From contig CBDCNP010000002.1 in the NCBI GenBank assembly GCA_965219415.1, forward strand, positions 4,960,001-5,024,000: a DNA stretch of 64,000 nt. The letters are read 5' to 3'. The notes beneath the pieces were generated by a model. That model saw nothing but the letters and a program-made list of their open reading frames with translations. It made no database searches and was not told the DNA's origin. The position numbers and the translations under genes are program-made. Source of the stretch: Candidatus Marinacidobacterales bacterium (GTDB lineage Bacteria; Acidobacteriota; Vicinamibacteria; Marinacidobacterales; DATDRI01). Of the stretch, positions 4,750-35,018 are shown in pieces (the stretch's first letter is position 1; every line of letters starts with the position of its first letter).

Positions 4750-5443
4750 GCCGATCCGCTCGGAACGGCTGCCGGACTTCGCACCAGCTTACACCTCTAC
4801 CCCTGAGTAGAGCCGACGCCGGCTCTTAAAACGTCCTACATGAAGACGACCAAAGCATTCCGGTTGCAGGAAGTTCGCCAATCTCATACAGCTCGAGTTT
4901 ATGGAAGGGACAAGTACTCGTAAAGCGTGGTCCGTGCCCATATCCACGGACGGAACTTCAGGATCGGTCTTGCGGTGCGCCGTGTCATGGTTCTGTCCTC
5001 GCTGGTTGTGCCGCCGGAACGCGGAGGCGTGCATAGAATGCCGAGCCACCTGCCGCCACCCTGTAGGCGACGCCGGGCCGAGCGGGAGCGGCTGCAGTAT
5101 ATTGTGCGAATAGACAGATCTGGCCGCTTTCCGGCGCTGCCCGGGCGCATGGAGGCCCATCGAGCGTTCCGGGATTCCGTGTCCCACGTCGTTGGGAATC
5201 GGGAGCACCCAGTGAGGATGGACCTCGGGGTGGCGCGGACGTTCGCCGAGAGCATCGTCGGCGTCGGCGTTCTGGTCGAACTGGACCGGATCTTCTCGCA
5301 TGGGGCCGACGGTTAGGGTCGGCACCCTGGCTCGCGACGCCGGCGCTGCACCACGGGATCGTCGGTCGGGGAACGCGGGCCCACGACATACGGCGCGAGG
5401 GTATGTGCGGGCGCGGAATCGCGCCGAGCGGAGGAGCACACGG

Positions 5444-6420
5444 ATGAAGGAGGGAACAAGGGGAGTCGAGGCCACAACCGGTCTGGTCCAGCTGGGTTGG
5501 CCGGGCGGGGCGCTGACGCTCAGGTATACGGGCATTGCGACCGTCGACAAGGAAGCGCAGGACGAAATCAGAAACGTCATGCAGCAGTTCCAGGGGAACT
5601 GCCAGATGATGCTGGTCTGGTTCGCGGGCGTGGTCGGGAGCCAGGACGCGATACGCCAGCACCTCGACGAAGTATCCCAGCGGAGTGAAACGCTCTCGGT
5701 CAGCAGCTTCCGCCCCGACGGCAGGGACGAGTCGGTATTGGCCCGGTTGCCCGTGGAGAAGGTCATCGAGGCCTTCGCCAACGCGGGTGCGTTCGAGAGG
5801 CTCTACGCGAAGGCCTTCGTGGTCTTTACGTTCCAGATCTGGGAGGAGGTGGCCCGTCCCGGGATCGCCGTCGCCCTGAAGGTGAAGCCTAATCATGTGC
5901 AGGCGGACCTGATAGGCGAGTGGCGTCGGCTGAGGAATTGGCTCGTGCACCGGAACAAGGACGCCGAGGACGAGTTTTTCGGGAACGCCGTGAAGCTGCC
6001 CGGGTTGTTGGAATTGCGACGGGAAGACCCCGGCCTCACGGCCGGCATGGTCTACGTTCTGATGCGAGAGCTGAACCGGATGCAGGTCGACGTGAACCCG
6101 GAGTCGCTGCAGTTCGGGCTGGAGCTCGCGCCGGTGGACGCGGGAATGATCGCTGGCGTCGCGAAGACCCTGGAATCGGGGGCTGGAGCGTTCGTGCCCG
6201 CCGAGGCGGCCATGTACCCGTCGAGGGTGCTCATCGTGTTCAACAGCGAAACCGCCACGATCCACGAGCGCGACTGCGATCGGAAAGACACCGAGTTCCA
6301 AAGCGTCGACGGCGGGCGCTGGGTCGGCGTGAGTTCGTTGGAGGTAGCCCGCGAGGTAATCGAGAACATCTCGGGAAGCAGGAGCGTCTGTGCGAGCACT
6401 GCATGGTACGACAGGGGTGA
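5444..6420 (+). CDS. Putative HEPN-domain protein with C-terminal Zn-binding domain (frameshift near 6363)
   Basis: GAGGAG RBS; helical region with RRLRNWLVH (R-x4-H); IHERDC, and after removing 2 nt at GAGA, HLGKQERLCEHCMVRQG*. Confidence 0.5.
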
Positions 6421-6489
6421 TGTCGCACGATGCGCGGACGCAACCGGAGTTGCGGCTGGGGGCGGCGGAGATTTCATGTTGCTGGTGGG

Positions 6490-7296
6490 CGACACTGAAG
6501 AAAGAGCGCCCACGCCCACCGCTCAACGACACGGAACGGGCTTTCTGGGTTGCCCTTCGAGGTTCGTGGCCCGTGTGGGCGAGCCGCCTGCTCATCGTCC
6601 ACGCGGACACCGTGGCCCGTTGGCATCGCGACCGATTCCGACGGTACTGGGCAAATATCTCGCAGCGCCGCCATCCCGGTCGGCCTCGGATTGATGCCGA
6701 GATTCGTCGCCTCGTCCGCACGATGGCGCAAGACGGCTGGGGGGCGCCACGCATCCATGCTGAGCTCACCAAGCTCGGTTTCATCATCTCCGAGAGCACG
6801 GTGTCGCGATACCTGCCGCGGCGTCCCGCGGAGCCCGACCAGCTGAAACGATGGATGGCTTTCTTGCGCAACCATAAAGACGATATCGCCGCCATGGATC
6901 TGTTCACCGTGCCCACCGCTTCGCTCCGGCTGCTGTACGGCTTCTTCGTCATCGAGCACGGTCGTCGGCACATCGTTCACTTCAACGCCACGTTCCACCC
7001 GACGTCTGCTTGGGTTATTCAGCAACTACGCAAGGCGTTTCCCTACGACACCGCTCCGAGATATCTCATCTTCGACCGCGACTTCATCTTTAGCGCTGCG
7101 GTCATCGAGTTCATCAAGGCAACGGGCACAAAACCCGTTCGCACTTCGTTTTGCAGCCCATGGCAAAACGGAACCGCGGAGCGGTCGGTCGGCAGCTGCC
7201 GTCGCGAGTTCCTTGAGCACGTCGTGGTTCTCGGCGCATGTCATCTCGTCCGGCTCGTGCGAGCTTACATCAGCTACTATCATGAGGACCGTTGCC
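6490..7296 (+). pseudogene. rve integrase-core transposase, truncated at both ends
   Basis: Paralog of 7416-8465; lacks the N-terminus and is cut at 7297 by the TGT end of the next element. Confidence 0.8.
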
Positions 7297-9310: not shown

Positions 9311-12300
9311 CTACGCGGCCGATAGATCCTGCCCGCTGGCGCTTCTGTGCCAGACATAGTCGTAGACGCGCGAGGCGACATCCTCGGTATCGGCCTCGGT
9401 GAATGGCGGACGAGGTAGCGACTCATAGAGCCGATCCAGGATGAAGACCTTGACTTCGGCCCGCGTCGTCGCATGCTGAAGCCACCCTGGCATCGGCGCG
9501 AGCAGGCCGCGCAGTGACGACAGCAGGCCCCGACTCGCCTGTTTCAGGTGCTCTCGGTCCTTCTTGCTGATATTGTCCTTGAACAAAAGGTCAAACAGCG
9601 CCAACTCATCAGCGCTCAGGCCCTCTTTGGCGGCGCGTCGCTGTTCCGTGTCGAGGCTGGCTGCCAGGGCAACCAGTTGCGCAAAAGTGGCTTCAACGGT
9701 CGCCCGGTCTTTCTCGCGGTTGTAGTCGGCGATGATCTCCTGGTACTTCTTGTAGTAGTCCATCCGCATCGGGTTGCGGGCCAGTATCTGGCCCAACTTC
9801 TGCTCGACGACGACGCGAATATCCTGCAGCGCGGCGTGCTTGCGGCGCACCTTGCTGGCAAACTCGTTTCTGAGCTTCTCGAAATCGATCTGACTCAGGT
9901 CCACCGTGAGTCCTTCGGCGCGGTCGTCGCCCGGCGCAGCGGCACGAATCGCCTCGTTCACGATGCGGTGCAGTTCCTTCAGCACCTCGGTCACGTCAGC
10001 GGTGTCGCGCCTCTCCTGCAGTTTCTTGTAGATGGCCTCGATGTTGTCGTGCCGCTCCGCATAGGCCAGTGCGCTTAGTTCCATCAGGAGGGCCTTGAAG
10101 CGGATGAATATCTGGCGGGCCATGATCTCGAAGCGGTGCCTGGCTTCGTCCGAGGCGTAGAGCACGTCCACCGCATCACGCAGGGCTTCGATACGGTCAA
10201 ATCCGGTTGCGCCGTGCAGCCGGGCCGCATCGAAGCCAAGTCCGAGTAGGTGCTTCTCCGCCGCTTCGATGGCCTGGAGCAGGCTCGCCACCAGTTCCTC
10301 GATCGGAGCCACGATGCCCCCGGCACCGCCACCGTCGTCCTCGTCGCCCAGGGCGTACTGCGCCAACGCCTCGCGCAGGCTCTTGAGCATGCCGTTGTAG
10401 TCCACGATGACGCCGCAGTCCTTCCCGGGGAATACGCGGTTGGCACGGGCAATGGCCTGCATCAGGTTGTGAGCCTTCATCGGCTTGTCGATATAGAGCG
10501 TTGCCAGACACTCAACGTCGAAGCCGGTCAGCCACATCGCGCAGATGATCGCGACGCGGAAGGGATGCTGTGGGTCCTTGAACGCGTCCTCGACTGGCAC
10601 CCGCTCGCCGTCCGGCGTCTGAAAGCCGGTCTTCATCACCATCCGGTGCGGAATGATATCGAAGCCCCACCTCTGGAAGTCGCGAACCTCGTTCTGCGCC
10701 TCACTGATGACAATCTCGATGATCGTGCTCTCCATCCACTGCGCTTGGCTGCGCAGGGCATCGATCTCCGCCGTCAGGCGCTCGCGGCTGTCAGCGTCGG
10801 TGGCCACGGCACGCTCCGCCTCCTTGCCTGGGATCAGCGTCTGAATCCGGGCGAGCTTGGCCTTCCATCGTGGCTCGATGCGCTGAAACATCCGGGCGCA
10901 GGTGATCTTGTCGATGCACACCACCATGGACTTGCCCGTCTGCCAGCGGGTGGAGCAGTGCTCGACGACATCGTCGGCGAGCTTGTCGAGCCGGTCGTCG
11001 GCCGTGATCACCTCGTAGTCCTTGCCAAGCAGGTGCTCCAGCAGGGCTTGTTGATTCGGGTCGAGGTCGGTCTTCTCGATGGCGTCGGCGATCCGGTCGT
11101 TGAGATCGAGGCGGGCGATTCCCAGTTTCTCGCCCCGGTTCTCGTAGACCAGTTTGACCGTGGACTGATCCTCTTCGGAACGCTTGAAGTCGTAGCGCGA
11201 GATGTAGCTGCCAAAAATCCGCCGGGTCAGCTCATCGTGCCTGAAAAGCGGGGTCCCGGTGAACCCGATGAACGAAGCGTTGGGCAAGGCGAGGCGCATG
11301 TTGCGCGCGAACTTGCCTGCCTGCGTCCGGTGCGCCTCGTCCGATACGACGATGATGTCGTCACGCACGCTGTAAGGCTCGGTCACTGGCTGGTTGAACT
11401 TGTGGATCAGGCTGAAGACAAAGCGGTGATTGCCGCGCAGGATCTCCTGCAGCGCTTGGCCTGAGCCAGCCCGCGGGGTTTTCTCGTCCGACACGCGGCA
11501 GCCCACGAAGGTGCGCCAGATTTGGTCGTCCAGGTCTTCGCGGTCGGTCATCAGTAGGAAGGTGAAGTTACCGGGCACCACTCGGCGCACCTTCTCAGCG
11601 AAGAACACCATCGAGTAGGACTTGCCGCTGCCCTGCGTGTGCCAGAACACGCCCAGGCGTCCCAGGTCGTCATGCGCCCGCTTCACCAGCGGCAGTTCGT
11701 CCTCCGCCGCGCCACCGGCGGTGGCTTGCACCGCATAGGCCGAGTCAGGCGGCGCTTTAGCGGCCTCCAGCAGCTCCGGCTTCGGCACGCGATACTCGAT
11801 CAGGCGCTCAGCCGGAGGGAAACGACGCTTCAGCTCTTCTTGCTGCACGACAGACGCGACGGCGTTGTTGACGCCGAGCACCTGGTGGTTCCGCGCCACG
11901 ATCTTGCGTGTGCCACCCGCACGGCTGTCGTCGAACAGGATGAAGTTCTCGACCAGATCCAGCAGACGCTCCTTCGCCAGCATCCCGTCGAGCAGCGCCT
12001 CGGCATCCAGGCGCGCCTTGTCTTTCTCGGTGTTGCGCTTCCACTCGACGAAGTGCTCCCACTTGCTGGTGATCGAGCCGTAGCGGGCTTGGTCGCCATT
12101 GCTCACCACCAGGAATGCATTGTGATGGAAGGCGTGGGCGATGCTGTGCTCGGAGAGGTAGTCGGTCAAGTTGTCATCGAAGCCGGCGCGGATGTTCCGA
12201 TAGACCGCTTTCAGCTCGATGAAAACCAGTGGCAGGCCGTTTACGAAGCACACGAGATCGGCGCGTCGGTTGTAGTGCGGCACGCGCAAGCCCTCTATCT

Positions 12301-12718
12301 TCAACTCGCGCACGGCAAGGAAGCGGTTGCGCCCGGCGGCGCGGAAATCGATCACGTGCGCATGTGCGTGCCGGGTCTCGCCGCTCGCGTCCCGCCACTC
12401 CACCGGCACCCCGCCGCGGATAAAGCCGTAGCACTCCCGGTTGTGCTGGATTAGCGAGTGGGCAATGTCGATACGGATGATTTTCTCGATGGCCTGTTCG
12501 CGCGCCGATTCCGGAATGTCCGGGTTCAGGTGCGCGAGCGCTGCCCGCAGGTCGCGCACCAGCACCACGTCGCGCGTCGACGCCCGGCCGAGCGTTCCCT
12601 GCGGCCCGAAGGTCTCGGCGTTGTAGGCGTAGACGCTTTGCCAGCCGAGCCGATCGCGGAGATGATTCGCGAAGGTCTGCTGGACCAGCCGGTCCTCGCT
12701 GTTGATGTCGGTGATCAT
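9311..12718 (-). CDS. hsdR: Type I restriction enzyme subunit R
   Basis: ADLVCFVNGLPLVFIELK nuclease motif, HTQGSGKS, DEAHR, FTGTP, MWLTGFD, QAIARANR. Confidence 0.95.
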   Translation of the reverse strand: MITDINSEDRLVQQTFANHLRDRLGWQSVYAYNAETFGPQGTLGRASTRDVVLVRDLRAALAHLNPDIPESAREQAIEKIIRIDIAHSLIQHNRECYGFIRGGVPVEWRDASGETRHAHAHVIDFRAAGRNRFLAVRELKIEGLRVPHYNRRADLVCFVNGLPLVFIELKAVYRNIRAGFDDNLTDYLSEHSIAHAFHHNAFLVVSNGDQARYGSITSKWEHFVEWKRNTEKDKARLDAEALLDGMLAKERLLDLVENFILFDDSRAGGTRKIVARNHQVLGVNNAVASVVQQEELKRRFPPAERLIEYRVPKPELLEAAKAPPDSAYAVQATAGGAAEDELPLVKRAHDDLGRLGVFWHTQGSGKSYSMVFFAEKVRRVVPGNFTFLLMTDREDLDDQIWRTFVGCRVSDEKTPRAGSGQALQEILRGNHRFVFSLIHKFNQPVTEPYSVRDDIIVVSDEAHRTQAGKFARNMRLALPNASFIGFTGTPLFRHDELTRRIFGSYISRYDFKRSEEDQSTVKLVYENRGEKLGIARLDLNDRIADAIEKTDLDPNQQALLEHLLGKDYEVITADDRLDKLADDVVEHCSTRWQTGKSMVVCIDKITCARMFQRIEPRWKAKLARIQTLIPGKEAERAVATDADSRERLTAEIDALRSQAQWMESTIIEIVISEAQNEVRDFQRWGFDIIPHRMVMKTGFQTPDGERVPVEDAFKDPQHPFRVAIICAMWLTGFDVECLATLYIDKPMKAHNLMQAIARANRVFPGKDCGVIVDYNGMLKSLREALAQYALGDEDDGGGAGGIVAPIEELVASLLQAIEAAEKHLLGLGFDAARLHGATGFDRIEALRDAVDVLYASDEARHRFEIMARQIFIRFKALLMELSALAYAERHDNIEAIYKKLQERRDTADVTEVLKELHRIVNEAIRAAAPGDDRAEGLTVDLSQIDFEKLRNEFASKVRRKHAALQDIRVVVEQKLGQILARNPMRMDYYKKYQEIIADYNREKDRATVEATFAQLVALAASLDTEQRRAAKEGLSADELALFDLLFKDNISKKDREHLKQASRGLLSSLRGLLAPMPGWLQHATTRAEVKVFILDRLYESLPRPPFTEADTEDVASRVYDYVWHRSASGQDLSAA

Positions 12719-12734
12719 AGCGCGGGAGCTCTCA

Positions 12735-13955
12735 TCACACCGCGATCTCCCCGCTCATGAGGCGCGGCAGCAGCACATCGCGGGCGGCGCGGAGCTTCTC
12801 GTTCTGTAGACGTAGCGTGTTCGCCTGCGCAAGAAGGGGCTCGGCCCACTCATTGAACGCACTTATCAGAAGCGAGGCGCGCGGCACGAGAATCTCGGAG
12901 CGCTCAAAGTCGCCAGCAACGACTGCCGGATATGCCGCTCCGCGCGCGTGCTTCTCCAGATAGCCGACGAACGCATCTGTTGTAGTCGCTTGGAGCAGGA
13001 ACGCCGTTGGTAAGCCGGTTGGTGTGATGACGGCGAATCCCGTTGATGCGATCAGATTCGATGATGGCTGCCATATCACTGCATATGACCTACGGTTGGG
13101 CCGGACGCATGACCAGATGATGTCGCCGTGCTTCACGACCCTGCGTGCCCGACTAGGGGCATCCCTGAAGTTGTATCGAGTCGTCTCATTGATCGAGCCA
13201 GGCGCAACCGACGAAATGTCGATATAGTGAATCTCGCCGTCATAGGAGCCGGAGAGCGACTCCTGATTTACGTCCGCAACGTCAGAAAGACGCTTTTTCT
13301 CCCACCCATCCGGCACACCGTTGGTGATACGGGTGTGCTCGTGGCCGGGGAAGCGCAAGCGGACGAACCATTCGCGGTAGAGCTGCCGCGCCGCCTCCTC
13401 CAACAGCGCCATCCGTCGCCGGTTGTTCTCGATCAGGTCGTCGTAGGCGGAGAGGATGCTAACGATCCGCCGCTGCTCCGAGATCGGTGGCAACGGCACT
13501 CGCAACGTCTCCACGTTGGTGATGTTTAGGTTCTGCTGTACTGCGCCGCGAGCTACTGAGAGAATGTTGCTTCTGCCTGCCGGAGAGTTGAAATAGTAGC
13601 GGTAGAAGCGCGAGTCCGCGCGCTCATTCATCCTGAAGCGGATCAAGAATGCGCCCGGCAGAACCGGGAGAGAGAATCCTTCGAATATGGATGCGATCCC
13701 ACATGTTCCGGATCGTGTGATGACAAGGTCTCCAGCTGTGAGAAAGTGATTGCCAAACCGGTCTTCGTTAAGGTGAGCAAGAGGCATTGTTTCGTAGGAA
13801 ATACGACCGTCGTTATCTAGATCAGTCGTGCGTAGCGTGGCGATGTTCCCGTCGTCCGCATATGCAGAGCCGCTGAACCTCGGGCCGAATGCGCTGTGAG
13901 CTACGAGTTCCTCGAAAACGACATGTCCCCACCCTCCTATTCGGGGTGTGGTCAT
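12735..13955 (-). CDS. hsdS: Type I specificity subunit S
   Basis: Two TRDs; PLPPISEQRRIVSILSAYDDLIENNRR and LRAARDVLLPRLMSGEI conserved helices; ATGA overlap with hsdM. Confidence 0.95.
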   Translation of the reverse strand: MTTPRIGGWGHVVFEELVAHSAFGPRFSGSAYADDGNIATLRTTDLDNDGRISYETMPLAHLNEDRFGNHFLTAGDLVITRSGTCGIASIFEGFSLPVLPGAFLIRFRMNERADSRFYRYYFNSPAGRSNILSVARGAVQQNLNITNVETLRVPLPPISEQRRIVSILSAYDDLIENNRRRMALLEEAARQLYREWFVRLRFPGHEHTRITNGVPDGWEKKRLSDVADVNQESLSGSYDGEIHYIDISSVAPGSINETTRYNFRDAPSRARRVVKHGDIIWSCVRPNRRSYAVIWQPSSNLIASTGFAVITPTGLPTAFLLQATTTDAFVGYLEKHARGAAYPAVVAGDFERSEILVPRASLLISAFNEWAEPLLAQANTLRLQNEKLRAARDVLLPRLMSGEIAV

Positions 13956-16075
13956 ACCCCCAGTTCCTCGAAGTTCCGGTGGATGGTGTTCGCCAGCTCG
14001 ACGGCTTCCTTGTCGAGGTCGGCCAACTCGACGTGGATGTCGCGTAGAGTCTGCTCGAAGTCGAAGTCCTCGTTCTCCTCCGGCAGGGCGACGCCGACGT
14101 AGCGGCCAGGGGTGAGGCTCCAGTCGGCGGCTTCAATGTCCTTGCGGTCCACAAGCTTCACCAGACCAGGCACGGCTTCGAGTTCGGCCTTCGGGAAACG
14201 GTCCTGCAGCCACATTACCTGCCGGTGGAAGTACGTAGCGTGCTTCAACTGCTCAACTGCGGCCTTGCGCTCCTCGTCGAGTTGCTTGACCAGCCGGCCT
14301 GTGGCGCGGCGGTCGTAGGCGGCGGAGATCGCATCGTCGGCTGCCAGATCGGTGCCAAGATCCGCTACCCGCGCGGCGAGCTTGTAGAGCAGGTCCACTT
14401 GCTTGATGAGGCCGCGGATCGCCCCCGCGTGGGGGGTAAACGCCTTGCGCGCAGCGTGCTGGGCGTCGTTCTTGTCGGGCAACGCCTTAGCGTATTTCTG
14501 GCCGAAGCCAGCAAGGCTCTTACGAAGCTTCTTCGCGTCGACCTCGTAAAGCGCGGCGGCCTCGCGCAAGTCGGTGACGGCATCGTCGAGTGCTTGCTTC
14601 CTGTCAGCGTCGAGGTCGGCGTGCGTCGCCGTGGCCTTGGCGAGCGCATCGAAGCGTCCACGCAGGTCGGTAAGTGTGGTCACGAAGGGTGCGAGCATCC
14701 CCGGGATGGCGGCGCTCTCGGCGTAGACGCTAGCCAGGTAGTCCTTTACCAGTCCGAGGAAGCGCTTCTGCTGGCCGCGGTACAGCCAGACAATCGCCGC
14801 GAGATCGTGCATCTGCGCGGGCGAGAAATCGTAGATCTTGCGCGTGACCTTACGATAAACATTCCGCGCGTCGAGCATCAGTACCTTGTCCCTACGCTCG
14901 GACGGTTTGGCCCGGTCGAAGTGCCACAGTTCGCAGGGGACGGTGCGGGTGTAGAAGAAGTTGGAGCGGATGGAGATCATCACGTCCACGTCGCCCGTCT
15001 CGACGATCTTCCGGCGCACCTCCTTCTCGCCATGCCCGGCGCTCGAGGCCTGCGAGGACATCACGAAGCCGGCGCGGCCCTTCGGGCTCAGGTAGCTCCA
15101 GAAGTAGGAGATCCAGAGATAGTTGCCGTTGCCGATCTTCTTCTGCTTGTTCACGCCCGGCAGGCCGAAGGGCAGACGCGGGTCGCCCTTGATGCGCTCG
15201 GCGTCCACCAAGTCCACATTGAACGGCGGATTGGCCATCACGAAGTCGCACGTGCCGGCGAGAGTGTGCTCGTCCTGGTAGTAGGTGATAGCCTCGGCAA
15301 TCTTTCCCTCTAGCCCGTGCACCGCGAGGTTCATCTTCGCGATGCGGATGGTGTCACGGTTCTTCTCCTGACCGTAGAAGACGACTTTCTTCGCCGTGTC
15401 GCCGCCCTCGTGCTCGATGAAGTGGCTGGACTGCACGAACATGCCGCCTGAGCCACAGGCCGGGTCGAACACCGTGCCGTGGTCCGGCTCGATGACGTTG
15501 ACAATGGTCTGCACGATCGAGGACGGCGTGAAGAATTCACCGTTGTCGTGCGCCTTCTGAATCGAGAACTTGGCGAGAAAGTACTCGTAGATGCGACCGA
15601 AGACATCGCCAGTGGCCTGCTTGATCTGCTCGCTGTTGAACAGGCGCATCAGATCCTCAAGCACCGTGGACTCGAAGATGCCGTAGTCCTTGGGTAAGAC
15701 GCCGACGAGCGGTTCGAACTCGGATTCGATGGCGGTCATGGCCTCGGTGACGAGCTTCGGCAAGTCGGCGCCGCTCACCGCCGCCTGCTGCATGATCCAG
15801 TCGTAGTGGGCCTTCTCCGGTAGGTAGAGGGAGCGGCGCGCGATGTAGTCGGCCGGTAGGACCTTACGCCTCGGCATTTTGCTGCTCGTCTGGTCGGCAT
15901 CGATCTGCCGGCGGGCGGCCTTGAAACGATTGGCCGCGTGACGAAGAAAGATGATCCCCAGCACCGGCATGAAGTAGTCGCTCGACGTGAGCTTCGAGTT
16001 GGCGCGGAGGTTGTCCGCGGCCTCCCAGAGGTCGGTTTCGAGCTTCTCGATGTGTTTGAAGGCGTTGCTATTCAT
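13952..16075 (-). CDS. hsdM: Type I N6-adenine methyltransferase subunit M
   Basis: LWEAADNLR, GEFFTP, DPACGSGG, ANPPFN, WSLTPGRYVG. Confidence 0.95.
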   Translation of the reverse strand: MNSNAFKHIEKLETDLWEAADNLRANSKLTSSDYFMPVLGIIFLRHAANRFKAARRQIDADQTSSKMPRRKVLPADYIARRSLYLPEKAHYDWIMQQAAVSGADLPKLVTEAMTAIESEFEPLVGVLPKDYGIFESTVLEDLMRLFNSEQIKQATGDVFGRIYEYFLAKFSIQKAHDNGEFFTPSSIVQTIVNVIEPDHGTVFDPACGSGGMFVQSSHFIEHEGGDTAKKVVFYGQEKNRDTIRIAKMNLAVHGLEGKIAEAITYYQDEHTLAGTCDFVMANPPFNVDLVDAERIKGDPRLPFGLPGVNKQKKIGNGNYLWISYFWSYLSPKGRAGFVMSSQASSAGHGEKEVRRKIVETGDVDVMISIRSNFFYTRTVPCELWHFDRAKPSERRDKVLMLDARNVYRKVTRKIYDFSPAQMHDLAAIVWLYRGQQKRFLGLVKDYLASVYAESAAIPGMLAPFVTTLTDLRGRFDALAKATATHADLDADRKQALDDAVTDLREAAALYEVDAKKLRKSLAGFGQKYAKALPDKNDAQHAARKAFTPHAGAIRGLIKQVDLLYKLAARVADLGTDLAADDAISAAYDRRATGRLVKQLDEERKAAVEQLKHATYFHRQVMWLQDRFPKAELEAVPGLVKLVDRKDIEAADWSLTPGRYVGVALPEENEDFDFEQTLRDIHVELADLDKEAVELANTIHRNFEELGV

Positions 16076-26359: not shown

Positions 26360-26952
26360 TTCAATGGCACGGACTCGAAGTTGCTTGGCGGCACGGTAGA
26401 GGTTGACGAGACGTACATGGGCTGCAAGCGCAAGAACATGAGCAACGCGAAGCGCAAGGATCTGGAAGGCCGTGGAACGGTGGGCAAGACGGCGGTTGTG
26501 GGCGCGAAGGAGCGCGATGGCCGGGTCAAGGCTCAGCCGGTGCAATCCACGGACAGCGAGACTCTGAGCGGATTCGTGCAGGACGCCATTGAGTCCGGCT
26601 CCACTGTCTTCACGGACGGTGCCAGCGCCTACGACAGCGTGGAGGGATTCGAGCACGATACGGTCAACCAAACATTGCCAAGGAATACGTCCATGGAAAA
26701 GCGGACACGAACGGCATAGAATCATTCTGGTCGCTATTGAAGCGCGGCTACTACGGCACATATCACAAGATCAGCGTGAAGCACCTGTACCGCCACGTCA
26801 ACGAGTTTGCGGGCCGTCACAACATCCGGGATCTTGATACCATTGCTCAGATTGTCATCATGAGCCAGAGCATGAACGGCAAACGATTGCGCTACAAGGA
26901 CTTGATCCGCTTCAATGGTCTACCTTCCGACGCGAGGGCTATGTCAATATGA
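26360..26952 (+). pseudogene. IS1595-family transposase, 5'-truncated and frameshifted
   Basis: GTVEVDETYMG, TDGASAY, TNGIESFWSLLKRG..G.YH..S.KHL.R..NEFA.RHN. Confidence 0.85.
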
Positions 26953-29707
26953 GCGGCCCGCGCAACACGGAGCCGCAAGCGAACGGTGCGCTGGCTCGTG
27001 CGCTGAGACGACGAAACCCAGGCTGGAACGACAACACTGTCCACGCCGAACGGACCCACGTGATTCAGCAAGCTGTGCCAGGCACGGGGACAGGCAAGAG
27101 GCCGGACATTCTCATAGCCCCGCCTCGCCGCCAGCCAGTGATCGTGGAGACGGAATTCGCCCCCGCACACACGGTCGATCAAGACGCGACCGCCAGGCTC
27201 GGGACGAGCTTGCACAGTACCGGAGAGGACATCGAAGGCGTGCTCTCCGTTGTCTTGCCGGAGAGAGCCTCAAGACAGGTGACCTCGAAACCATCGAAAG
27301 CGCAGCGTTGCGCTACGCCACGCATTACCTGGATTCCAAGGGAGAAAGCATCCGCTGGCCGCCGGAGAGGAAGTGGCTTGAGGGGGGCGTGGACGACCTT
27401 GCTGATGCCATCGAATACCTGTCCCTCTCGGAACGGCAACTGGCGCGAGGGACGGAAGCCCTTGAACAAGTGGTACGGAACGCGGCGGGACTGCTGGCCG
27501 AGCACGCCGGTGAGGGCCCACTGGCGCGGATCGCCCGTGACCTGCATCAAGGAGAAGGCAAGCAGACCGAGCGCATGGCAGCGGCTATCTGCGTCTCGGC
27601 CTTCGTGTTTCATGCAGCGATCGAAAGGCAGCAACAGATCCCGCCGGTTCCGTTAGCGGGATCTATCGACAAGGGGACGCTTCTGGGCGTATGGAACGCG
27701 ATTCTCGAAGTCAACTACTGGCCGATCTTCAGCGTCGCCAGTGACTTGGTGAAGGAATTGCCGATCAAGGCGGTTCCGCCGGTCATGAACCGCATCGCGG
27801 AGTCCATCTCCGACTTGGCGCAGCTGGGCGCGACGACCTATCACGACCTTACTGGGAGGATGTTCCAGACCCTTATCACGGATCGGAAGTTCCTGGCCAC
27901 CTTCTACACATTGCCCGAGTCAGCCTGCCTCCTCGCCGAACTAGCGGTCGAGCAGCTAGACGTGGACTGGTCGGACCGGGTCGCGATAGAAGGGCTGCGG
28001 ATTGCGGATTTCGCCTGCGGCACGGGAGCCTTGCTCTCGGCCGCGCAGCGGGCAGTGTATCGGCGCTATCGACGGGCCGGCGGCGATGACAAGGACTTGC
28101 ATCAAGCCCTGATGGAGCGCGTCCTGAGCGGGCTGGACATCATGCGCGCCGCAACGCATCTCACCTGTTCCATGCTGTCCAGCTCCCACCCCTCGCTCGC
28201 CTACGGCAAATCCCAGATCCACACGATGCCCTACGGCATCGATGGCGTCGGTACACACATCGGAGCACTCGACCTTCTCGATTCCGACCATTCCTACTCC
28301 CTGTTCGCCACGGGCGAGTCCATGGGCGGTACAGAATCGGAGAGCCGTAGCGAGCATTCCGTCACGGTCAAGGACAACTCCTGCGATCTGGTCATCATGA
28401 ACCCCCCGTTCACGAGGCCCACAAACCATGAGGGAAGCCACGCCGAGATACCGATCCCATCCTTCGCGGGATTCGGCACTCCTCTTAGCGAACAGAGGGC
28501 TATGTCGAGAATGCTCGGCAAGTGCAAGCCCGAGTTCGGTCACGGCAACGCTGGGCTGGCGTCGAACTTCATGGATCTCGGCCACCGCAAGCTGAGAGAT
28601 GGAGGCGTGCTGGCCTTGGTACTGCCATCCTCACTTGCACGAGGCCAGGCATGGGAGAAGGCGAGAAAGGCGCTGGCGGCAAACTATTCCGATATCCACA
28701 TCCTGTCCATCGCCGCGACGGGGACGACGGCAAGGGCTTTCTCGGCAGACACGGGCATGGCCGAGTGCCTTGTCGTAGCCAATAAACGGAGCGGAGGCGG
28801 AATGCGTTTCACGAATCTGTCCTACCGGCCAGCAGGGTTGCTGGAATCGGCTCTGACTGCAAGGGAGACAGGACAGGGGACGTCGAACGCTCCGGCAATC
28901 CGCAGCGCCTTTAACGGCAGCCTTCTCGACCCATGCGGAGCAGGAGTGCTTAGCGAGAGCGTGGGAAATGCGGCACGGGCACTAGCTTGCGGGGAGTTCG
29001 TGTTCCCCCAATCGCTAGCGTCGGAAGGCATTGCCGTCACCCAGCTAGGGAATGTTGCAGAACGAGGGCTCGTTGATAGGGACATCAACGGCAAGCCACC
29101 TGCAAGCAATGCCCTGCCTCGGGGTGCGTTCGATATCCGCCCCATCCGCAAGGATGAACTTCCCACCTATCCCGCGTTGTGGGGACACAACGCTGAGCGA
29201 GAACGGCAGTTTGTCGTTCCGCCAGACAGATGTGGCGAAGTGCGTCCGAAGATGAAGTCTCATGCGGTCAAGACGTGGCGTCGAACGGCATCCCGTCTCC
29301 ATTCCAACCGAGACTTCCAGCTCAACTCACAGAGTTTGGCAATGTGTCTCACACCGGAGAAGTGTCTCGGCGGCAGGGCATGGCCGAACGTAATCCCGCG
29401 CGAACCGAAGTACGCGATCCCGCTACTGCTGTGGTGCAACTCGACGCTAGGACTGATCCTGTTCTGGTGGCACGGCACGAGACAGCAGGAAGGTCGATCC
29501 ATACTCACGATCTCCAAGCTGCCAGATCTTCCCGTGCTCGATCCCCGCACCTTGACGGAGGAGCAGGTGGATCACTGCCGTGCGATCTTCGATGACTTCA
29601 AGGATCGCGAGTTCCTACCCGCTAACGAGGCGTGGCGCGACGAGACGCGCAAGGCGCTTGACCGCGATCTGAGCGAGGTTCTCGAACACGCGGAGGTTGC
29701 CGCCTGA
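26949..29707 (+). CDS. Type IIG-like fused restriction endonuclease-N6 methyltransferase (frameshift near 27265; C-terminus possibly truncated)
   Basis: N-terminal RPDILI...VIVETE nuclease-like motif; FLATFYT, ADFACGTG, MNPPF; removing 2 nt in GAGAGAG joins the two ORFs (VVLPESLKTGDL). Confidence 0.75.
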
Positions 29708-29764
29708 TATGATACTCAGATGACGGAGTGGAGGGTGCCGTTCTTTTTCCACGAACATCGGGAC

Positions 29765-29944
29765 ACATCCATCGATAGCCGGTATATCGACAAATTCCCC
29801 ATCCCGCATTTTTCTAACAACTTCGCCCTGCGTCTGCGAGAGTTGGTCTTCGAATCAAAGAACGCGAAGCGCAAATCCGACGAACTGCTCGAACAAGCCA
29901 AAACACACGTCGAACAACTCATCGAGGAGGCCGTGAAGCCATGA
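29765..29944 (+). pseudogene. C-terminal remnant of an HsdS-like specificity subunit
   Basis: IDKFPIP...LVFESKNAKRKSDELLEQAKTHVEQLIEE resembles the terminal conserved helix of S subunits; ATGA overlap with the next gene. Confidence 0.55.
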
Positions 29945-30135
29945 ATCTGTCTCCGGAAGATTCTAAGCTCCTCGCGGAGCTTTGCGAACAGCACGGCGTT
30001 AGCCAAGAGAAGGTCCTAAAGCTACTATCCGCTGTGCGCGAGTACGAGTTCAAGGACCGGCGCACCGGCATATATAGCGCGCTGCGTGAGATTCTGAAGA
30101 GCAACCCCTCACGGGCTTCGGAACGGCTGGCATGA
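29941..30135 (+). CDS. Small Dnd-associated protein resembling the DndC C-terminal tail
   Basis: LLAELCEQHGVSQEKVLKLL...EY...RRTGIYSALREIL; coupled by ATGA on both sides. Confidence 0.65.
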   Translation: MNLSPEDSKLLAELCEQHGVSQEKVLKLLSAVREYEFKDRRTGIYSALREILKSNPSRASERLA

Positions 30136-30767
30136 GCAATAACAATGACATCATCGGTTTCGTCAAGGACCCGAGCAAGTTGGTGGAACTTTGCCGGGAT
30201 GTCATCGACCAGATCGATGCTAGTTCTGAAGGCGTGGCGGTTGCCGAGCAAGACGCCCAGTTGCACGCCATAGCAAAGGCGATTGAGAAGCTCGAAAAGG
30301 ACCACTTCGGCGTCCCGGACCCGTTACGCGCTGAGAAGACCCGCTTGGCATCCGCCCTGGCTGTGCACGCGGATGCTAAGCAGGCGCTGGCGCAGTTGGC
30401 TGACGAGTTTCAGGACATTTTGAAGGATCTTCGAGAGCGAATCGGGCAGAACACAACTGCCCCGGAAGCCAAGCCTCGCGGCAAGCGCTTGAAACTGCCC
30501 AAGACCCCGTCGGCTGTCTTGCGCGAGCACATTCTGCAGGCACTCAAGAAACAGGGAGGCCGCGCGAGGGTGCGTGACGTGATCGAGGAAATAACCCGGC
30601 AGCTCGAAGGCAAACTTCTACCGGGCGACAGGGAATGGCGCGAGGCGACCAACGAGCCCGCCTGGAAAAACAACGTCAAATGGGAGCGATTGCGGATGAC
30701 GCAGGACGGCGCGCTACGGCGGGGCTCGCCCCATGGCATTTGGGAGCTTGATGAGGATAGTGAATGA
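30132..30767 (+). CDS. Coiled-coil + Mrr N-terminal-type winged-helix protein (no nuclease domain)
   Basis: ILQALKKQGG...WKNNVKWERLRM..DG.L...SPHGIWEL. Confidence 0.7.
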   Translation: MSNNNDIIGFVKDPSKLVELCRDVIDQIDASSEGVAVAEQDAQLHAIAKAIEKLEKDHFGVPDPLRAEKTRLASALAVHADAKQALAQLADEFQDILKDLRERIGQNTTAPEAKPRGKRLKLPKTPSAVLREHILQALKKQGGRARVRDVIEEITRQLEGKLLPGDREWREATNEPAWKNNVKWERLRMTQDGALRRGSPHGIWELDEDSE

Positions 30768-32764
30768 AGTTCCACAAGCTGACCATCGAGAACTATAAGT
30801 CCTTCCAGTTCCCGACAGAAATCGTTTTCCCGGTTGGAGAGGACGGCTGCAGCATTTTCCTCATCGGCGGCATGAACGGGGCAGGCAAGACCTCGATCAT
30901 GGAGGCCGTGACTTTCTGTCTATATGGTGGCAAGGTCGAGGACATTTACCGCAATATCAACCGGCGGGAAAAGGCAAAAGGCAATGCCAATGTAGCCTTC
31001 GAGCTGGTAATAAAGATGGACGACGGTTCGGAGCTGGTCGTCAAACGTTCGTGGACGGCCGGCGCAGTCAGCGAACCCAAGCCGCGCGACCTGACTGAAC
31101 GGCTGGTGGTAGTTCGCGACGGCAAGCGGGTGTCGGTGCAGACTCAGGAGATATGGCAGGACTTCATTCGCGCAGTAATTCCTAGGGGGATCACGCAATT
31201 TTTCTTCTTCGACGGCGAGAAGATTCAAGAAATCGCGGCCGATGACCATTCTGAAGTGCGCTTGAAGTCGTCGCTGGACGCGGCGCTGGGCATCCAGTTC
31301 ATTAACCGGCTGGCGAGCGACATCGCCTACATCAAACAGGAGGAGCGCAAGGGATTCGTCGAGATCTCAGACGAGGACCTGGAGTTCAAGCAGAGCGAAC
31401 TGAAGCGCGAGGAAAGCAAGCTGGCGCGCAAGCATCAAGAGCGCGACGGGTTAAGGGCAGAGCTAGACGGGTTCAAGGCACAGTTGGAAGAGGCGAAGAA
31501 GCGCTTTGAGGCGACCTTTCACGCCGCGCCGGAGTCGCGCGAGGCGATGCGCGAGCAGGAGAAAAAGCGAGTCTTGGCGGCCAATCGGCAAGCGCAGGTG
31601 GAGAGCGAAGCTCGTGCCCTGAGCGAAAAAGTGCTGCCCTTCACCATCGCGGGCAAACTATTCGACGGTATCCGGCGGCAGATCGAGATCGAACGCGAAT
31701 CGGCCAGCGGCGAGGCAATAAGGGAAAACGCCGCGTCATTGGCGAAACGCATCGTACGAGTGGTCGAGGAACCAGAGCCGATCTATACCGAAAAGCTTTC
31801 CGCAGAACGGATGGCGGAACTTGAACGGCGAATCTTTCGACTCCTGAAAGAAGGTGACCCCAAGGCTAGCGTGGATAAGGTGCTGGACCTTTCGGACCGG
31901 GACGCGGCACGGGTATTGAACGGGATGGAGTCGCTGGAAAACAGCGATGTGTTCCTGCTCAAGCCGTTACTGGAAGAGGCGCACAGCTTGGAGGCGCAGA
32001 TACGCCAGCTCGAAGGTGTTGGCCAAGGTGGCGCGCTGACGCTGACAGAGCGCCACCTGTTCGACGAGCTACAAGCAGAGATGGAAAGCTTCTCGACGCA
32101 AATCGGGCGAAAGACCGAACAGTTGCGGCTCGTGGAGGAAGGCATCCTGGCGCTGGAAGAGCGCATTAGTGACATCGAGATGGAGATCGAAAAGCTTTAC
32201 GAGAAGCACAACGTTTCGAAGGAGAAAACGGACCTCATCGAGGAGTGCGATTCCATAGCCAGCGTGCTGAATCAGTTTATTGTCCGACTGCGTAAGAACA
32301 AGGTGCAATTGCTCCAGGAGAAGACGTTCGAGATGTACCGCTTGCTCTCCAGCCGAAGTGGACTCATCAAAGACATCACTATCGATGAAAAGACCTACGA
32401 GGTGCACGTCATCGACCGCAACGGCCATAAAATGCGAAAGTCTGGATTGTCGGCCGGTGAGAAGGAAGTATTTGCGGTGTCGCTGTTGTGGGGACTTGCT
32501 CAGACCAGTGAATTGAAGCTGCCGATCATTATCGACACACCACTATCTCGCCTGGACAGCACGCACCGCGACAACATTGTGGACAATTACTTTCCTAACG
32601 CGGGCGACCAGGTGATCATTCTTTCGACCGATACGGAAATCGACGCCAACTACTACCGAGCCCTGAAGCCTCGCCTCAGCGGTGCGGGGAGTCTGGAGTT
32701 TGACCAACGCCAGGAGCTAACGACCTTTCGGCCGGGTTATTTCTGGGAGAGGAACCATGGCTGA
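30764..32764 (+). CDS. dndD: DndD-type SMC/ABC ATPase
   Basis: GGMNGAGKTS, FFFFDGEKI, long coiled coil, LSAGEKE, IIDTPLSRLDSTHR, ILSTDTEI. Confidence 0.85.
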   Translation: MKFHKLTIENYKSFQFPTEIVFPVGEDGCSIFLIGGMNGAGKTSIMEAVTFCLYGGKVEDIYRNINRREKAKGNANVAFELVIKMDDGSELVVKRSWTAGAVSEPKPRDLTERLVVVRDGKRVSVQTQEIWQDFIRAVIPRGITQFFFFDGEKIQEIAADDHSEVRLKSSLDAALGIQFINRLASDIAYIKQEERKGFVEISDEDLEFKQSELKREESKLARKHQERDGLRAELDGFKAQLEEAKKRFEATFHAAPESREAMREQEKKRVLAANRQAQVESEARALSEKVLPFTIAGKLFDGIRRQIEIERESASGEAIRENAASLAKRIVRVVEEPEPIYTEKLSAERMAELERRIFRLLKEGDPKASVDKVLDLSDRDAARVLNGMESLENSDVFLLKPLLEEAHSLEAQIRQLEGVGQGGALTLTERHLFDELQAEMESFSTQIGRKTEQLRLVEEGILALEERISDIEMEIEKLYEKHNVSKEKTDLIEECDSIASVLNQFIVRLRKNKVQLLQEKTFEMYRLLSSRSGLIKDITIDEKTYEVHVIDRNGHKMRKSGLSAGEKEVFAVSLLWGLAQTSELKLPIIIDTPLSRLDSTHRDNIVDNYFPNAGDQVIILSTDTEIDANYYRALKPRLSGAGSLEFDQRQELTTFRPGYFWERNHG

Positions 32765-34286
32765 CCGGCTCTACACATCGAGCGAAGCCGATGAAGTGCT
32801 AAGTGCTCTGCGCTTCGAGACCAAGCTGGAAAAAGCAACGCTCGCGCGAATTGCCTTCACTCTTTCCCTAGTCAAGGAGGGAGCCACAGTTGCGCGCAGT
32901 CCGAGCTTCAGTGGCGGCGAGATGAAGCGGCCGACCTTCGTCGGAGAGAATGAAGTGTTTCTACGGACGCTGATCGCGCATGTATATGGCAAGCGAGAAT
33001 TTAGTGAGGATGAGTTCTTCTCCAATCGCTCCATGGTGAAAAACCATATCGACAGCGGCGCCGCTCTGCTGGCGCAGATGTTCCAGGAAAGCGGTCGTAG
33101 CGGTGACGCACTGATCTTGCGACTGGTAGACGAGGTGGAGTTTGCCGGACGGCGCGAGCAACTCGGCAGCGGGCTGGATATTTTCATTGGCCGGACCCTG
33201 TTGCACCGGAACGAGCTGGTCATGAAACTGAATAACACGGCCAAGCACGCCAATTCGAATTTAGCCATCATGGGCAAGCCCGGCGTCGGCAAGACACAGT
33301 TTCTACTAAAGATACTGACCGACATCCGCGTCCAGTCGAATTTCCAAACGAACTTCATCTATTTCGACTACAAGGGCGATGTCGTTGAGAACGCACGTTT
33401 TCTGGAGCTGGCGCGCGTGCAACCATTTCGACTATTGCAAAGTGGGCAAAGCCTGCCGATCAATCCTTTTATCTTGCCAGCATATGACGAGCCGACGATC
33501 AACGTATCGGCGCGCGAGAAAGCAGAGAGTTTTGCGTCGATCAACAGCAAGCTTGGGATAGTGCAAAAAGGGGCGCTGACCGAGGCGATTCGCGCGGCTT
33601 ACGCCAAAAGGGCCGGGTCGGTCGAGCCTTATCCAGACTTTCCGGACATCCTAGAGATAGCTGTTGCGGCTTACGAAGAAGACGGAAAGAAGGACGACAG
33701 TCTGATCGAAGTACTACGCGATCTAGCCGATTTCGAGCTGTTCTGGCGCCATGGCAGCGAAGGCACCCCAATGGACCGTGTGTCTACCCGCTCCATGCTG
33801 ATTGATGTACATGCGATGCCTGTTCTGAAGGAGCTAGTAGCCTACCTAGTCATCGAGCGACTTTACAAGGAGATGGCGACTCTTCCCGATAGCCCGGTGA
33901 CTGAGGGGAGGCGGACAATTCGAACTATTCTTGTCATCGACGAAGCTCACAACTATCTCGGCCAGAAGAACATCTTCCTACAGCGCATCATCCGCGAGGG
34001 GCGGTCGAAAGGCGTTGTAGTATTCTTCGCAAGTCAGTCACCTAACGATTACCAGCAGAAGTTCTTCAACTTCCAAGAGCTGCTCGAGTTCGCTTTTATC
34101 TTCCAGTGTGACGGAGTAGCCGCCGGTTCAGTGCAGGACATTCTAGGCTGCGGCACCAAGACGGCAAAAGATCTTCAGACTGAGATCGCACGACTCGAAC
34201 CGTGGCAGGTTGTTGCTCGCAGTCAAGAGAAGACCGAGGAGTTTGTGAAGTTCACTGCTGAAGCCTTCTACAAGAGCTATTCGTAG
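32757..34286 (+). CDS. DndE-like domain fused to a HerA/FtsK-type P-loop ATPase
   Basis: N-terminal ~125 aa with LARIAFTLSL and HIDSG; then GKPGVGKT, FDYKGD, PINPF, LVIDEAH, REGRSKG, ASQSP. Confidence 0.7.
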   Translation: MADRLYTSSEADEVLSALRFETKLEKATLARIAFTLSLVKEGATVARSPSFSGGEMKRPTFVGENEVFLRTLIAHVYGKREFSEDEFFSNRSMVKNHIDSGAALLAQMFQESGRSGDALILRLVDEVEFAGRREQLGSGLDIFIGRTLLHRNELVMKLNNTAKHANSNLAIMGKPGVGKTQFLLKILTDIRVQSNFQTNFIYFDYKGDVVENARFLELARVQPFRLLQSGQSLPINPFILPAYDEPTINVSAREKAESFASINSKLGIVQKGALTEAIRAAYAKRAGSVEPYPDFPDILEIAVAAYEEDGKKDDSLIEVLRDLADFELFWRHGSEGTPMDRVSTRSMLIDVHAMPVLKELVAYLVIERLYKEMATLPDSPVTEGRRTIRTILVIDEAHNYLGQKNIFLQRIIREGRSKGVVVFFASQSPNDYQQKFFNFQELLEFAFIFQCDGVAAGSVQDILGCGTKTAKDLQTEIARLEPWQVVARSQEKTEEFVKFTAEAFYKSYS

Positions 34287-34560
34287 TCAGGGTCGCGCGT
34301 GGTTCCTTGAAATCATCCGCACGGACTGTCCGCAGGTACTCGATAACCGGTGGACGGAGGTCTTTCCACCGAGCAGGGCGGCCCTGCCACAGACTGCAGC
34401 GGCGACACTCCTCAGGCAGATAACATCCTGCGGAAGGTCCTCGTACCCGTCCTGTCCAAAAACACAAACGAACTCAAGATTGGCGCGCCGGGCCGTTTCG
34501 ATCGTCATCGACCCGTGGCGAGCCCCAGATATGGGGCGTGTCGGAGGCGATGTCGGCGAT

Positions 34561-34932
34561 TCGGGTTCTCCGTACGCGCAGGGAAAACAACGTCCAGCAA
34601 GGGGATGCCACGCTCCCGGGTGGAGACCTGGATCCAGGCCCCGGGCCGCAACCTGGACCAGAACGTGCTAGCCGGCTACGCCACGGTAGTCCTGGCCTCG
34701 ATTCTGGACCCCTCGGGTGGCCTCTCTTCCGACGCTGCACGGCCCGGTCAGTGCCCGTTCTCCTACTGGGCGCAAACGTGGCACTCGAAAATCGCGATTA
34801 GAGACGAATCCCAAAAATGAGGCCCGTTCCGCCCTTCTAGCGCGTCTCTGGTGCCACCTACCCCTGCAAAACCCCGCCAACCGCGCGGAAAATCTCATCC
34901 GTCTCTGCAGTGCCACAATTGGCCAGACTGTG
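34561..34932 (+). repeat. Arm repeat R4, abutting the tRNA-Ser 3' end (island boundary)
   Basis: Reference copy for R1-R3. Confidence 0.85.
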
Positions 34933-35018
34933 TGGCGGAGGGAGAGGGATTCGAACCCCCGGACCTCTCGGTCTGCGGTTTTCAAGACCGCCGCCTTAAA
35001 CCGCTCGGCCATCCCTCC
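34933..35018 (-). tRNA. tRNA-Ser(TGA)
   Basis: GGAGGGATGGCCGAGCGGTTTAAGGCGGCGGTCTTGAAAACCGC...GGTTCGAATCCCTCTCCCTCCGCCA; long variable arm; encoded CCA. Confidence 0.97.

Follow-up and report, generated by a model that had tools for sequence, protein, structure and literature searches.

We analyzed a cluster of Dnd-like genes in Candidatus Marinacidobacterales bacterium, within a 64,000-nt stretch of contig CBDCNP010000002.1 (GCA_965219415.1, positions 4,960,001-5,024,000) that we call the window. Five open reading frames (ORFs) follow one another on the + strand at 29720-29944 (74 aa), 29941-30135 (64 aa), 30132-30767 (211 aa), 30764-32764 (666 aa) and 32757-34286 (509 aa), with ATGA overlaps at 29941, 30132 and 30764 and an 8-nt overlap at 32757. 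A preliminary description of this DNA had reported this coupling, and its coordinates and junctions were all borne out. It had also called an HsdS tail at the upstream end, a DndD and a DndE-HerA fusion; these calls held in hidden Markov model searches, the HsdS tail by a weak match of the 74-aa ORF to PADLOC Specificity_I (1.4e-4; NCBIfam MAD5, 5.6e-4). The genes of the module are the following.

29771..29944, + strand: 3' remnant of hsdS, the last ~58 of ~460 codons and the stop codon (tblastn with the HsdS of a related locus, L004)
29941..30135, + strand: Sp-DndD, 64 aa (Pfam PF20306; homology to the DndC tail)
30132..30767, + strand: accessory 211-aa protein with an Mrr_N-like winged helix (Mrr_N below the gathering score; AlphaFold model)
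30764..32764, + strand: DndD, 666 aa (TIGR03185, PADLOC DndD, ABC motifs)
32757..34286, + strand: DndE::HerA/FtsK fusion of 'DndEi'-type architecture, 509 aa (Pfam DndE, PADLOC DndH, Walker motifs)

We consider it likely that 29771-34286 corresponds to the 3' part of a cassette, spread horizontally and independent of phosphorothioation (PT), whose complete form encodes a fused nuclease-methylase (RM), HsdS (S), Sp-DndD, DndD and DndE::HerA, and that the copy in the window has been beheaded and does not restrict.

The 666-aa protein matched the DndD model TIGR03185 at 1.6e-114 (383.7 bits; cut-off 245.85) and the PADLOC DndD model at 1.4e-135, and it carries a Walker A motif (GMNGAGKT), an ABC signature (LSAGEK) and a Walker B motif (IIIDT). 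Residues 4-110 of the 509-aa protein matched Pfam DndE (PF08870) at 1.1e-11 and 45.4 bits, above the cut-off of 25, so that its N-terminus is DndE-like, as had been proposed; the same domain stayed under the cut-off of TIGR03184 (39.5 vs 71.85). Residues 138-505 matched the C-terminal ATPase of PADLOC DndH (1.5e-36) and PADLOC mad8 (1e-18). The best solved relative of this protein was the DptH ATPase domain (7es4_A, 4e-21), and both its Walker A (GKPGVGKT) and Walker B (ILVIDE) motifs are present. Among 8,000 candidates scored, homologues of the 509-aa protein at E<=1e-3 formed 886 clusters when grouped at 90% identity, the best 120 being 81-93% identical to it; the names among the matches included Accumulibacter, Terracidiphilus, Desulfobacterales and one Methanosarcinales archaeon. 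The genome that holds the window (8.05 Mb in 3 contigs, 96% complete) encodes one DndD and one DndE, both in the window.

Related loci were collected by scanning one genome per species, which gave 123 confirmed stretches; 80 of these, 68-91% identical, were kept (cited below as L004 and so on), and their ORFs were called and clustered. The fusion was encoded in 80 of the 80 loci at 67-91% identity to that of the window, and the DndD of the window was 60-90% identical to theirs. These loci come from Proteobacteria, Acidobacteria, Desulfobacterota, Planctomycetes, Bacillota, Bacteroidota, Chloroflexi and other phyla. The ORF clusters of DndD and of the fusion had members in 77 and 79 loci, those of RM (~919 aa) and S (~456 aa) in 46 and 44. 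Where at least 6 kb was available upstream of dndD (49 loci), RM was found in 42, together with S in 38 and by itself in 4, and neither gene was found in 7. The preliminary description had pictured a hybrid of a methylation-specificity system and a Dnd motor whose 5' half was lost in the window, and this idea was supported by the 38 loci in which the block follows RM and a full hsdS. Nor were the neighborhoods always those of an ordinary dndBCDE locus, since they carry hsdS and Mrr-N-like genes in place of dndBC.

The complete order of genes is a small helix-turn-helix (HTH) gene, RM, HsdS, none to two passenger genes, Sp-DndD, an optional gene for a coiled-coil/winged-helix protein, DndD and DndE::HerA/FtsK. 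The small gene, of the HTH_17 type, is often the first of the operon. RM contains an N-terminal HSDR_N_2 nuclease domain of the PD-(D/E)xK type (9.8e-22) and an N6_Mtase domain (1.2e-36), and S is a Methylase_S protein. D125, E142-x-K144, DPxCGS and NPPF were invariant in the 35 full-length RM proteins. The best solved relative of RM was RM.BsaXI (8w0p_A), which is of nearly the same length (916 vs 919 aa) and aligned in three collinear stretches (E 1.3e-37). The methylase missing from the window is thus a BsaXI-like fused nuclease-methylase (a type IIB RM subunit) and no plain HsdM. No conserved cluster of HsdR proteins with a superfamily 2 (SF2) helicase was seen in the 80 loci.

We also compared the conservation of the individual genes, using the 26 loci in which all genes are full length. 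The median pairwise identity was only 27% for S, compared with 71% for RM, 71% for DndD, 74% for the fusion (63% in its DndE domain and 80% in its ATPase) and 61% for the small peptide. Because S is hypervariable while DndE-HerA is conserved, S, rather than DndE, is the most likely seat of target specificity. The divergence of RM followed that of DndD with a Mantel r of 0.90, and that of the fusion followed DndD with an r of 0.88 (16 loci). RM therefore tracks DndD as tightly as the fusion does, suggesting that RM is a long-term partner of the motor genes.

In L004 and L012 the hsdS and sp genes stand in the same frame as in the window and share the same 4-nt overlap. Between hsdS and sp, the passengers were RhuM in 16 loci, DarT with a macro-domain DarG-like protein in 6, YhcG in 3 and NOV_C in 2. 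RhuM, DarT/macro-domain, YhcG and NOV_C genes also sit within type I restriction-modification (R-M) operons. Examples of the passenger slot are found at L043:20-1063, L076:5212-5850, L040:4693-5760, L071:4183-5250 and L077:6007-7200. In L055 (Anaerolineaceae), a type II N6_N4 methylase and a TdeIII endonuclease (4556-7038) lie directly upstream of sp-wHTH-dndD-dndE::herA, replacing RM and S. L054 and L068 have all four genes of the block intact, without RM or S within 7 kb upstream. Two orphan copies are decaying: the winged-helix gene is truncated in L008, and dndD is truncated at its 5' end in L021. Intact cassettes occur in cultured strains, namely Methylotuvimicrobium buryatense 5G (L044), Paracoccus sulfuroxidans (L050), Nitrosomonas sp. 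Nm51 (L012) and Lysinibacillus sphaericus (L057), and experiments would be better served by these relatives than by the copy in the window.

The front of the cassette is missing in the window. When the HsdS of L004 was compared with the window by tblastn, only its residues 403-460 of 460 aligned (29768-29941, 53% identity), and the letters before this match belong to a dispersed repeat (29668-29770). Its copies, more than 50 at 90-98% identity, are spread over all three contigs of the genome, and their matches all end at 29770-29774. Among the other copies, similarity is confined to 126 bp, so that the repeat is not part of a larger insertion sequence. A 930-aa ORF upstream ends in 13 codons of repeat sequence, and the 74-aa ORF starts with ~17 codons of it. 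These ~17 codons are therefore not hsdS; real hsdS sequence begins at ~29768-29771, close to the 29765 of the preliminary description. About 87% of hsdS and the whole of RM are gone from the window, and tblastn found no RM or S of the cassette's family elsewhere in the genome. RM and most of hsdS were lost at this dispersed-repeat junction. With DndD and the fusion at 60% identity or more, Sp-DndD present, and RM and a full-length hsdS absent, the window copy is a truncated member of the cassette family.

We then looked at how the module is distributed among relatives of its host. None of 30 relatives carried the fusion, and the loss could not be dated from kin. Because the host's relatives lack it and repeats flank it, the module is a horizontally acquired island fragment. 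A metagenome contig of 4,985 nt (run X5) matched 29769-34398 with 55 differences (~99% identical), and its first 355 letters did not fit the window; a nearly identical module thus sits behind different DNA in another sample. Between the stop codon of dndE::herA and a tRNA-Ser gene, 34443-34942 consists of high-copy repeats, in which a base can have as many as 140 matches in the genome. The summed depth of metagenome contigs over these repeats is thousands-fold.

The absence of sulfur-transfer genes was examined beyond the window. The window contains DndD and DndE but not DndC, and the gene directly upstream of dndD is not dndC: an hsdS stump, sp and the winged-helix gene stand there, and the 80 loci held no conserved DndC cluster. 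The preliminary description had noted the lack of dndC, dndB and dptH in the window alone. In the whole genome, neither DndC (TIGR03183) nor DndB had a match at E<=0.001, so the claim could be extended for these two; dptH had no match at this threshold either, but the DptH model was equally silent in control genomes. We further scanned the carrier genomes of 50 of the 80 loci, those with the longest flanks. DndC scored above its cut-off in 4, each time far from the cassette, and 46 were without it. In 32 more carrier genomes weak DndC matches were seen, mostly at DndC positions ~385-446, and these are the small peptide genes themselves. With no DndC in the window's genome and none above the cut-off in 46 of 50 carriers, the cassette is most likely linked to methylation and not to sulfur.

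The search of a sample of 301 Flavobacteriales genomes gave 9 matches, 1 in the cassette's family (69% identity) and 8 distant fusions (25-32%). In 5 of the 8 distant loci a gene of ~440-447 aa lies directly upstream of dndD; that of L098, the only one of the five that was scanned, encodes DndC (TIGR03183, 1.8e-130). In the remaining loci, the pair stands behind a sigma-like HTH protein in two cases and behind a beta-class methylase in one. These distant fusions behind DndC show that the same DndD/DndE-ATPase core serves different modification modules. The locus with the beta-class methylase (L104:9602-18671) pairs the core with a 630-aa enzyme and with proteins of 761, 328 and 72 aa without assigned function. 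L102 and L103 encode a protein of 734-746 aa with a sigma-70 region-4-like HTH, and L103 also has a superfamily 1 helicase.

The small gene between hsdS and the winged-helix gene provides a further link with DndC. Its 64-aa product matched Pfam Sp-DndD (PF20306) at 8.1e-13 and 48.7 bits (cut-off 27.2), and this Pfam family shows that the small gene was already catalogued; the family reportedly stems from Krishnan et al. 2020. The same protein matched the PADLOC DndC models at positions 404-457 of 481 (4.2e-7) and NCBIfam PRK06850 at positions 405-461 of 505 (2.7e-6), and hhalign placed Sp-DndD residues 7-56 on DndC 389-438 of 442 (E 0.001, probability 21%). By these alignments, Sp-DndD is a peptide homologous to the C-terminal tail of DndC. 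It was found by tblastn in 64 of the 80 related loci; the other 16 comprise 15 contigs with less than 0.5 kb upstream of dndD and L021 with its truncated dndD. The window's peptide is 52-83% identical to 32 orthologues. A profile search of the PDB also proposed kinship with TAL-effector repeat proteins, with high whole-sequence scores but no stretch that passed alone. We rejected this likeness as chance because a short LLxxLCxxHG-like motif is summed over many repeats.

Structure prediction of the complex, which the preliminary description had proposed, was run for Sp-DndD together with DndD. The predicted complex scored 0.54, compared with 0.00 for the best of 3 controls; at least 85% of the contacts agreed between runs, and the predicted local distance difference test score (pLDDT) of the partner was at least 72. 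In the calibration, 58 of 80 solved complexes passed the mark, as did 2 of 110 mismatches, and scores of 0.60 or less came from only 7 of those 80 solved complexes but from both mismatches. The prediction thus gives weak support to binding of Sp-DndD to DndD.

The 211-aa protein had been described as a nuclease-less Mrr-N winged helix-turn-helix protein. Its winged helix, its lack of any detected catalytic domain and its place upstream of dndD were confirmed, but membership in Mrr-N was not established: the match to Pfam Mrr_N (2.4e-6) reached 28 bits against a gathering score of 29.5, and we regard the label as plausible and not proven. In the AlphaFold model (mean pLDDT 83), long helices make up the N-terminal part and a winged helix the C-terminal part; the linker between them is disordered, with pLDDT below 50 at residues 109-117. 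Foldseek returned no PDB match to this model at E<=0.001, and the best hits were generic winged helices. The predicted layout is reminiscent of the kleisins of SMC complexes, and the weak fold matches included a MukE-MukF chain. The winged-helix cluster (~212 aa) was present in 44 of the 80 loci and is therefore optional; the gene is sometimes duplicated or placed after the fusion. The protein is hypervariable, with a median pairwise identity of 28%. Co-variation with S, which would be expected of a reader of the methylated site, found no support (Mantel r 0.21, p 0.07; partial r -0.04 given DndD).

The window has further features near the module.

29668..29770, strand not assigned: dispersed-repeat copy, 103 bp of a ~126-bp unit (blastn against its own genome)
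26915..29707, + strand: non-cognate 930-aa methylase-like ORF (NPPF motif; no relative in related loci)
34933..35018, - strand: tRNA-Ser(TGA), likely an island landmark downstream of the module (ARAGORN; Rfam tRNA, 60 bits)
9311-16075, - strand: complete type I R-M operon of the same island, with HsdM of 707 aa (HsdM_N and N6_Mtase), HsdS of 406 aa and HsdR of 1135 aa (HSDR_N, SWI2_SNF2 and T1RH-like_C)

The tRNA was the sole match of an Rfam scan, which gave nothing for the dispersed repeat. A promoter and terminator scan found no + strand promoter-like site upstream of the module, but this is a weak test, since its counts were at the level of shuffled sequence. In the 930-aa ORF, Eco57I and MTS stayed below their cut-offs and mad2 matched at 4e-10. 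The ORF had no tblastn match in any of the 80 loci and is unrelated to the cassette. Its apparent true N-terminus lies in another frame, in a 235-aa ORF (26949-27656) whose residues 4-105 find a relative (35% identical) at another place in the genome. A paralogue of the 930-aa ORF (29% identical; G000 C3:4265151-4268747) is a single open frame after a serine-recombinase-like N-terminus, and the two may represent a recombinase-linked R-M-like gene family.

From these data we propose how an intact cassette would work. An (RM)2S enzyme would recognize a bipartite site set by the hypervariable S subunit, methylate self DNA and cut DNA that is unmethylated. DndD and DndE-HerA, kept as a pair with the help of Sp-DndD, the ex-DndC tail peptide, would provide ATP-driven scanning or translocation of DNA and so take the place of the HsdR motor of type I enzymes. 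The remnant in the window would be a recently beheaded leftover whose reading frames have not yet decayed. Because its four genes encode no nuclease or methylase domain, they probably cannot restrict alone.

Several points weigh against this proposal. The methylation, the restriction and the role of the ATPases in the cassette are all inferred, and the kinship of Sp-DndD with the DndC tail rests on short matches, at an hhalign probability of 21%. BsaXI-type enzymes need no ATPase according to the abstract of PMC11997821, which gives no reason for the two added motors. In R. anatipestifer, the ATPase domain of DndEi serves modification and not restriction, as the available part of PMC6435447 describes, and by analogy the motors could serve methylation here. 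Seven of the 49 informative loci are without RM and S, and L054 and L068 keep the four genes, so the block may have a function of its own. Finally, the ratio of nonsynonymous to synonymous substitution rates (dN/dS) of dndD and dndE::herA was 0.02-0.06 between the window and its relatives and 0.02-0.07 among intact cassettes, which shows no relaxed selection and no visible decay in the window, but dS is saturated (>1) and the test is uninformative.

We considered whether the block is a portable motor rather than a remnant. Sp-DndD, the winged-helix protein, DndD and DndE::HerA could together be an ATP-driven scanning machine that moves between systems, with Sp-DndD as a universal docking peptide and the 211-aa protein as a kleisin-like bridge, and the window copy could be live between partners, possibly serving the 930-aa enzyme. 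The front ends observed before DndD/DndE-ATPase genes are indeed diverse: DndC, a BsaXI-like RM with S, a type II methylase with TdeIII, and a beta-class methylase. We hold this broader idea to be unlikely. A narrower version, in which the front was swapped and not lost, so that the four-gene motor works with the 930-aa protein or in trans with an R-M system of the island such as that at 9311-16075, seems to us quite unlikely. L055 offers an alternative front end in its type II methylase and TdeIII, distant relatives stand behind DndC, a beta-class methylase or a sigma-like HTH protein, the four ORFs of the window are intact without relaxed constraint, and a methylase-like ORF lies directly upstream of the module. 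However, that ORF has no relative in the 80 loci, and the repeat and the hsdS stump that separate it from the module look like an accident rather than a designed fusion. Moreover, its N-terminal ~100 codons seem to be in another frame, so that it may be broken, and the module lacks a promoter-like site of its own by the weak test above.

The second alternative of the preliminary description was that the four genes form a self-sufficient, modification-independent SMC-like and HerA module for defense or DNA maintenance. The orphan four-gene copies of L054 and L068 and the very strong purifying selection (dN/dS 0.02-0.07) speak for it. But no nuclease or other effector domain was detected in the four proteins, the block follows RM in 42 of 49 informative loci and co-diverges with it (r 0.90 between RM and DndD), and the orphan copies of L008 and L021 are decaying. 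We therefore find such a module decidedly improbable.

It is very improbable, in our judgment, that the cassette is a subtype of the eight-gene methylation-associated defense system (MADS), mad1-mad8 (Maestri et al., bioRxiv 10.1101/2023.03.30.534895; PMC13662399). The two share a small regulator gene in first place, a MAD2-like nuclease-methylase, a MAD5-like S and a mad8-like ATPase: the best NCBIfam matches of the cassette's RM and S were MAD2 (3.9e-81) and MAD5 (3.3e-32), and the ATPase domain of the fusion has the PADLOC mad8 match given above. These scores lie far under the curated cut-offs, however (273 vs 720 bits for MAD2 and 112 vs 400 bits for MAD5), and DndD and DndE-HerA had no NCBIfam MADS match at E<=0.01. 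In addition, MAD6-8 are mandatory in MADS and MAD3/4 are an OLD-like pair, whereas no such conserved cluster occurs in the 80 loci, and the cassette has DndD and a DndE domain in place of the MAD3/MAD4 pair and MAD6/MAD7. The markers MAD6, MAD7 and MAD8 did not reach their family cut-offs in the 666- and 509-aa proteins, and membership in MADS was rejected.

A working DndEi-type PT system with its sulfur-transfer enzymes encoded elsewhere is scarcely credible: DndD and DndE are bona fide members of their families and DndE-HerA fusions are filed under PT-modification systems in the available text of PMC10853773 and PMC6435447, but the 8.05-Mb, 96%-complete genome has no DndC at E<=0.001 and no DndB, DndC is missing from 46 of 50 carrier genomes, the fusions linked to DndC form a separate family at 25-32% identity, and no housekeeping PP-loop ATPase can replace DndC according to that part of Rakesh et al. 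(PMC10853773).

The likely RM/HsdS-linked cassette is built from known parts. Rakesh, Aravind & Krishnan (NAR 2024; PMC10853773), in the part available, place DndD-linked DndE-HerA/FtsK fusions in clade 3 of HerA/FtsK, citing Krishnan et al. 2020, and remark that other modifications may be the task of DndD-DndE cores that lack PT genes; coupling to methylases is described there only for CxC-clade systems, with cytosine methylases. Their pairs have the same core as the cassette, a DndD-clade ABC ATPase beside a DndE-HerA/FtsK protein related to the DndH/DptH C-terminus, but the cassette is without DndC and follows a BsaXI-like RM and hsdS. The DndEi of Riemerella anatipestifer (Zheng et al. 2016, as cited in the available text of PMC6435447) belongs to a dndC-D-Ei operon. 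It is likewise a DndE with an added ATPase/helicase domain, encoded after dndD; in the DndEi of Riemerella and Flavobacterium, this added domain shows helicase and ATPase activity, and PT requires it. The DndEi-like Flavobacteriales fusions are 25-32% identical to that of the window, with DndC directly upstream in L098, and from their sequences we infer that those linked to DndC are of the R. anatipestifer type.

BsaXI is a type IIB (RM)2S enzyme that acts without an ATPase, as the accessible text of PMC11997821 has it (PDB 8w0p). The RM of the cassette is collinear with it, with invariant PD-(D/E)xK and NPPF, and is likewise followed by an S subunit; unlike BsaXI, the cassette adds two ATPase genes and a small peptide that are co-inherited with RM and S, and RM is absent in the window. 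With type I R-M the cassette shares an S subunit with two variable target recognition domains, an N6-adenine methylase, an HSDR_N-type nuclease domain and ATP-dependent motors in the operon, but its nuclease is carried on the methylase and its motors are ABC/SMC-like and HerA/FtsK-like. PbeABCD/CxC-ABC systems were tried and rejected as well: the CxC motif is not in the 666-aa protein and occurs in just 1 of 54 aligned orthologues, PADLOC DndD (1.4e-135) came ahead of PbeC (4.7e-123), and no PbeA-like cluster is conserved in the loci. PMC5608340 proved a false lead, as it says only that no Dnd genes were found. We found no paper describing or testing an RM/S-coupled cassette in the literature searched; Krishnan et al. 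2020 and supplementary neighborhood lists (Rakesh 2024 Data S1, notes to the MADS preprint) lie outside it and may show the cassette. The DndD/DndE-HerA pair is already in print, and the cassette, partly catalogued, is less novel than the preliminary description had assumed.

Dnd proteins are taught as sulfur-insertion machinery. In the loci studied here, DndD, DndE and a DndC-derived piece are kept at 60-90% identity across distant phyla, mostly in genomes without DndC. The window copy itself chiefly documents the decay of such a cassette at dispersed repeats inside a defense island. If our reading of the cassette is true, it would represent a class of R-M systems with an SMC-like and a HerA-like motor instead of an SF2 helicase, and the DndD/DndE core would be a DNA-scanning engine of general use, open to coupling with different self-marking chemistries.

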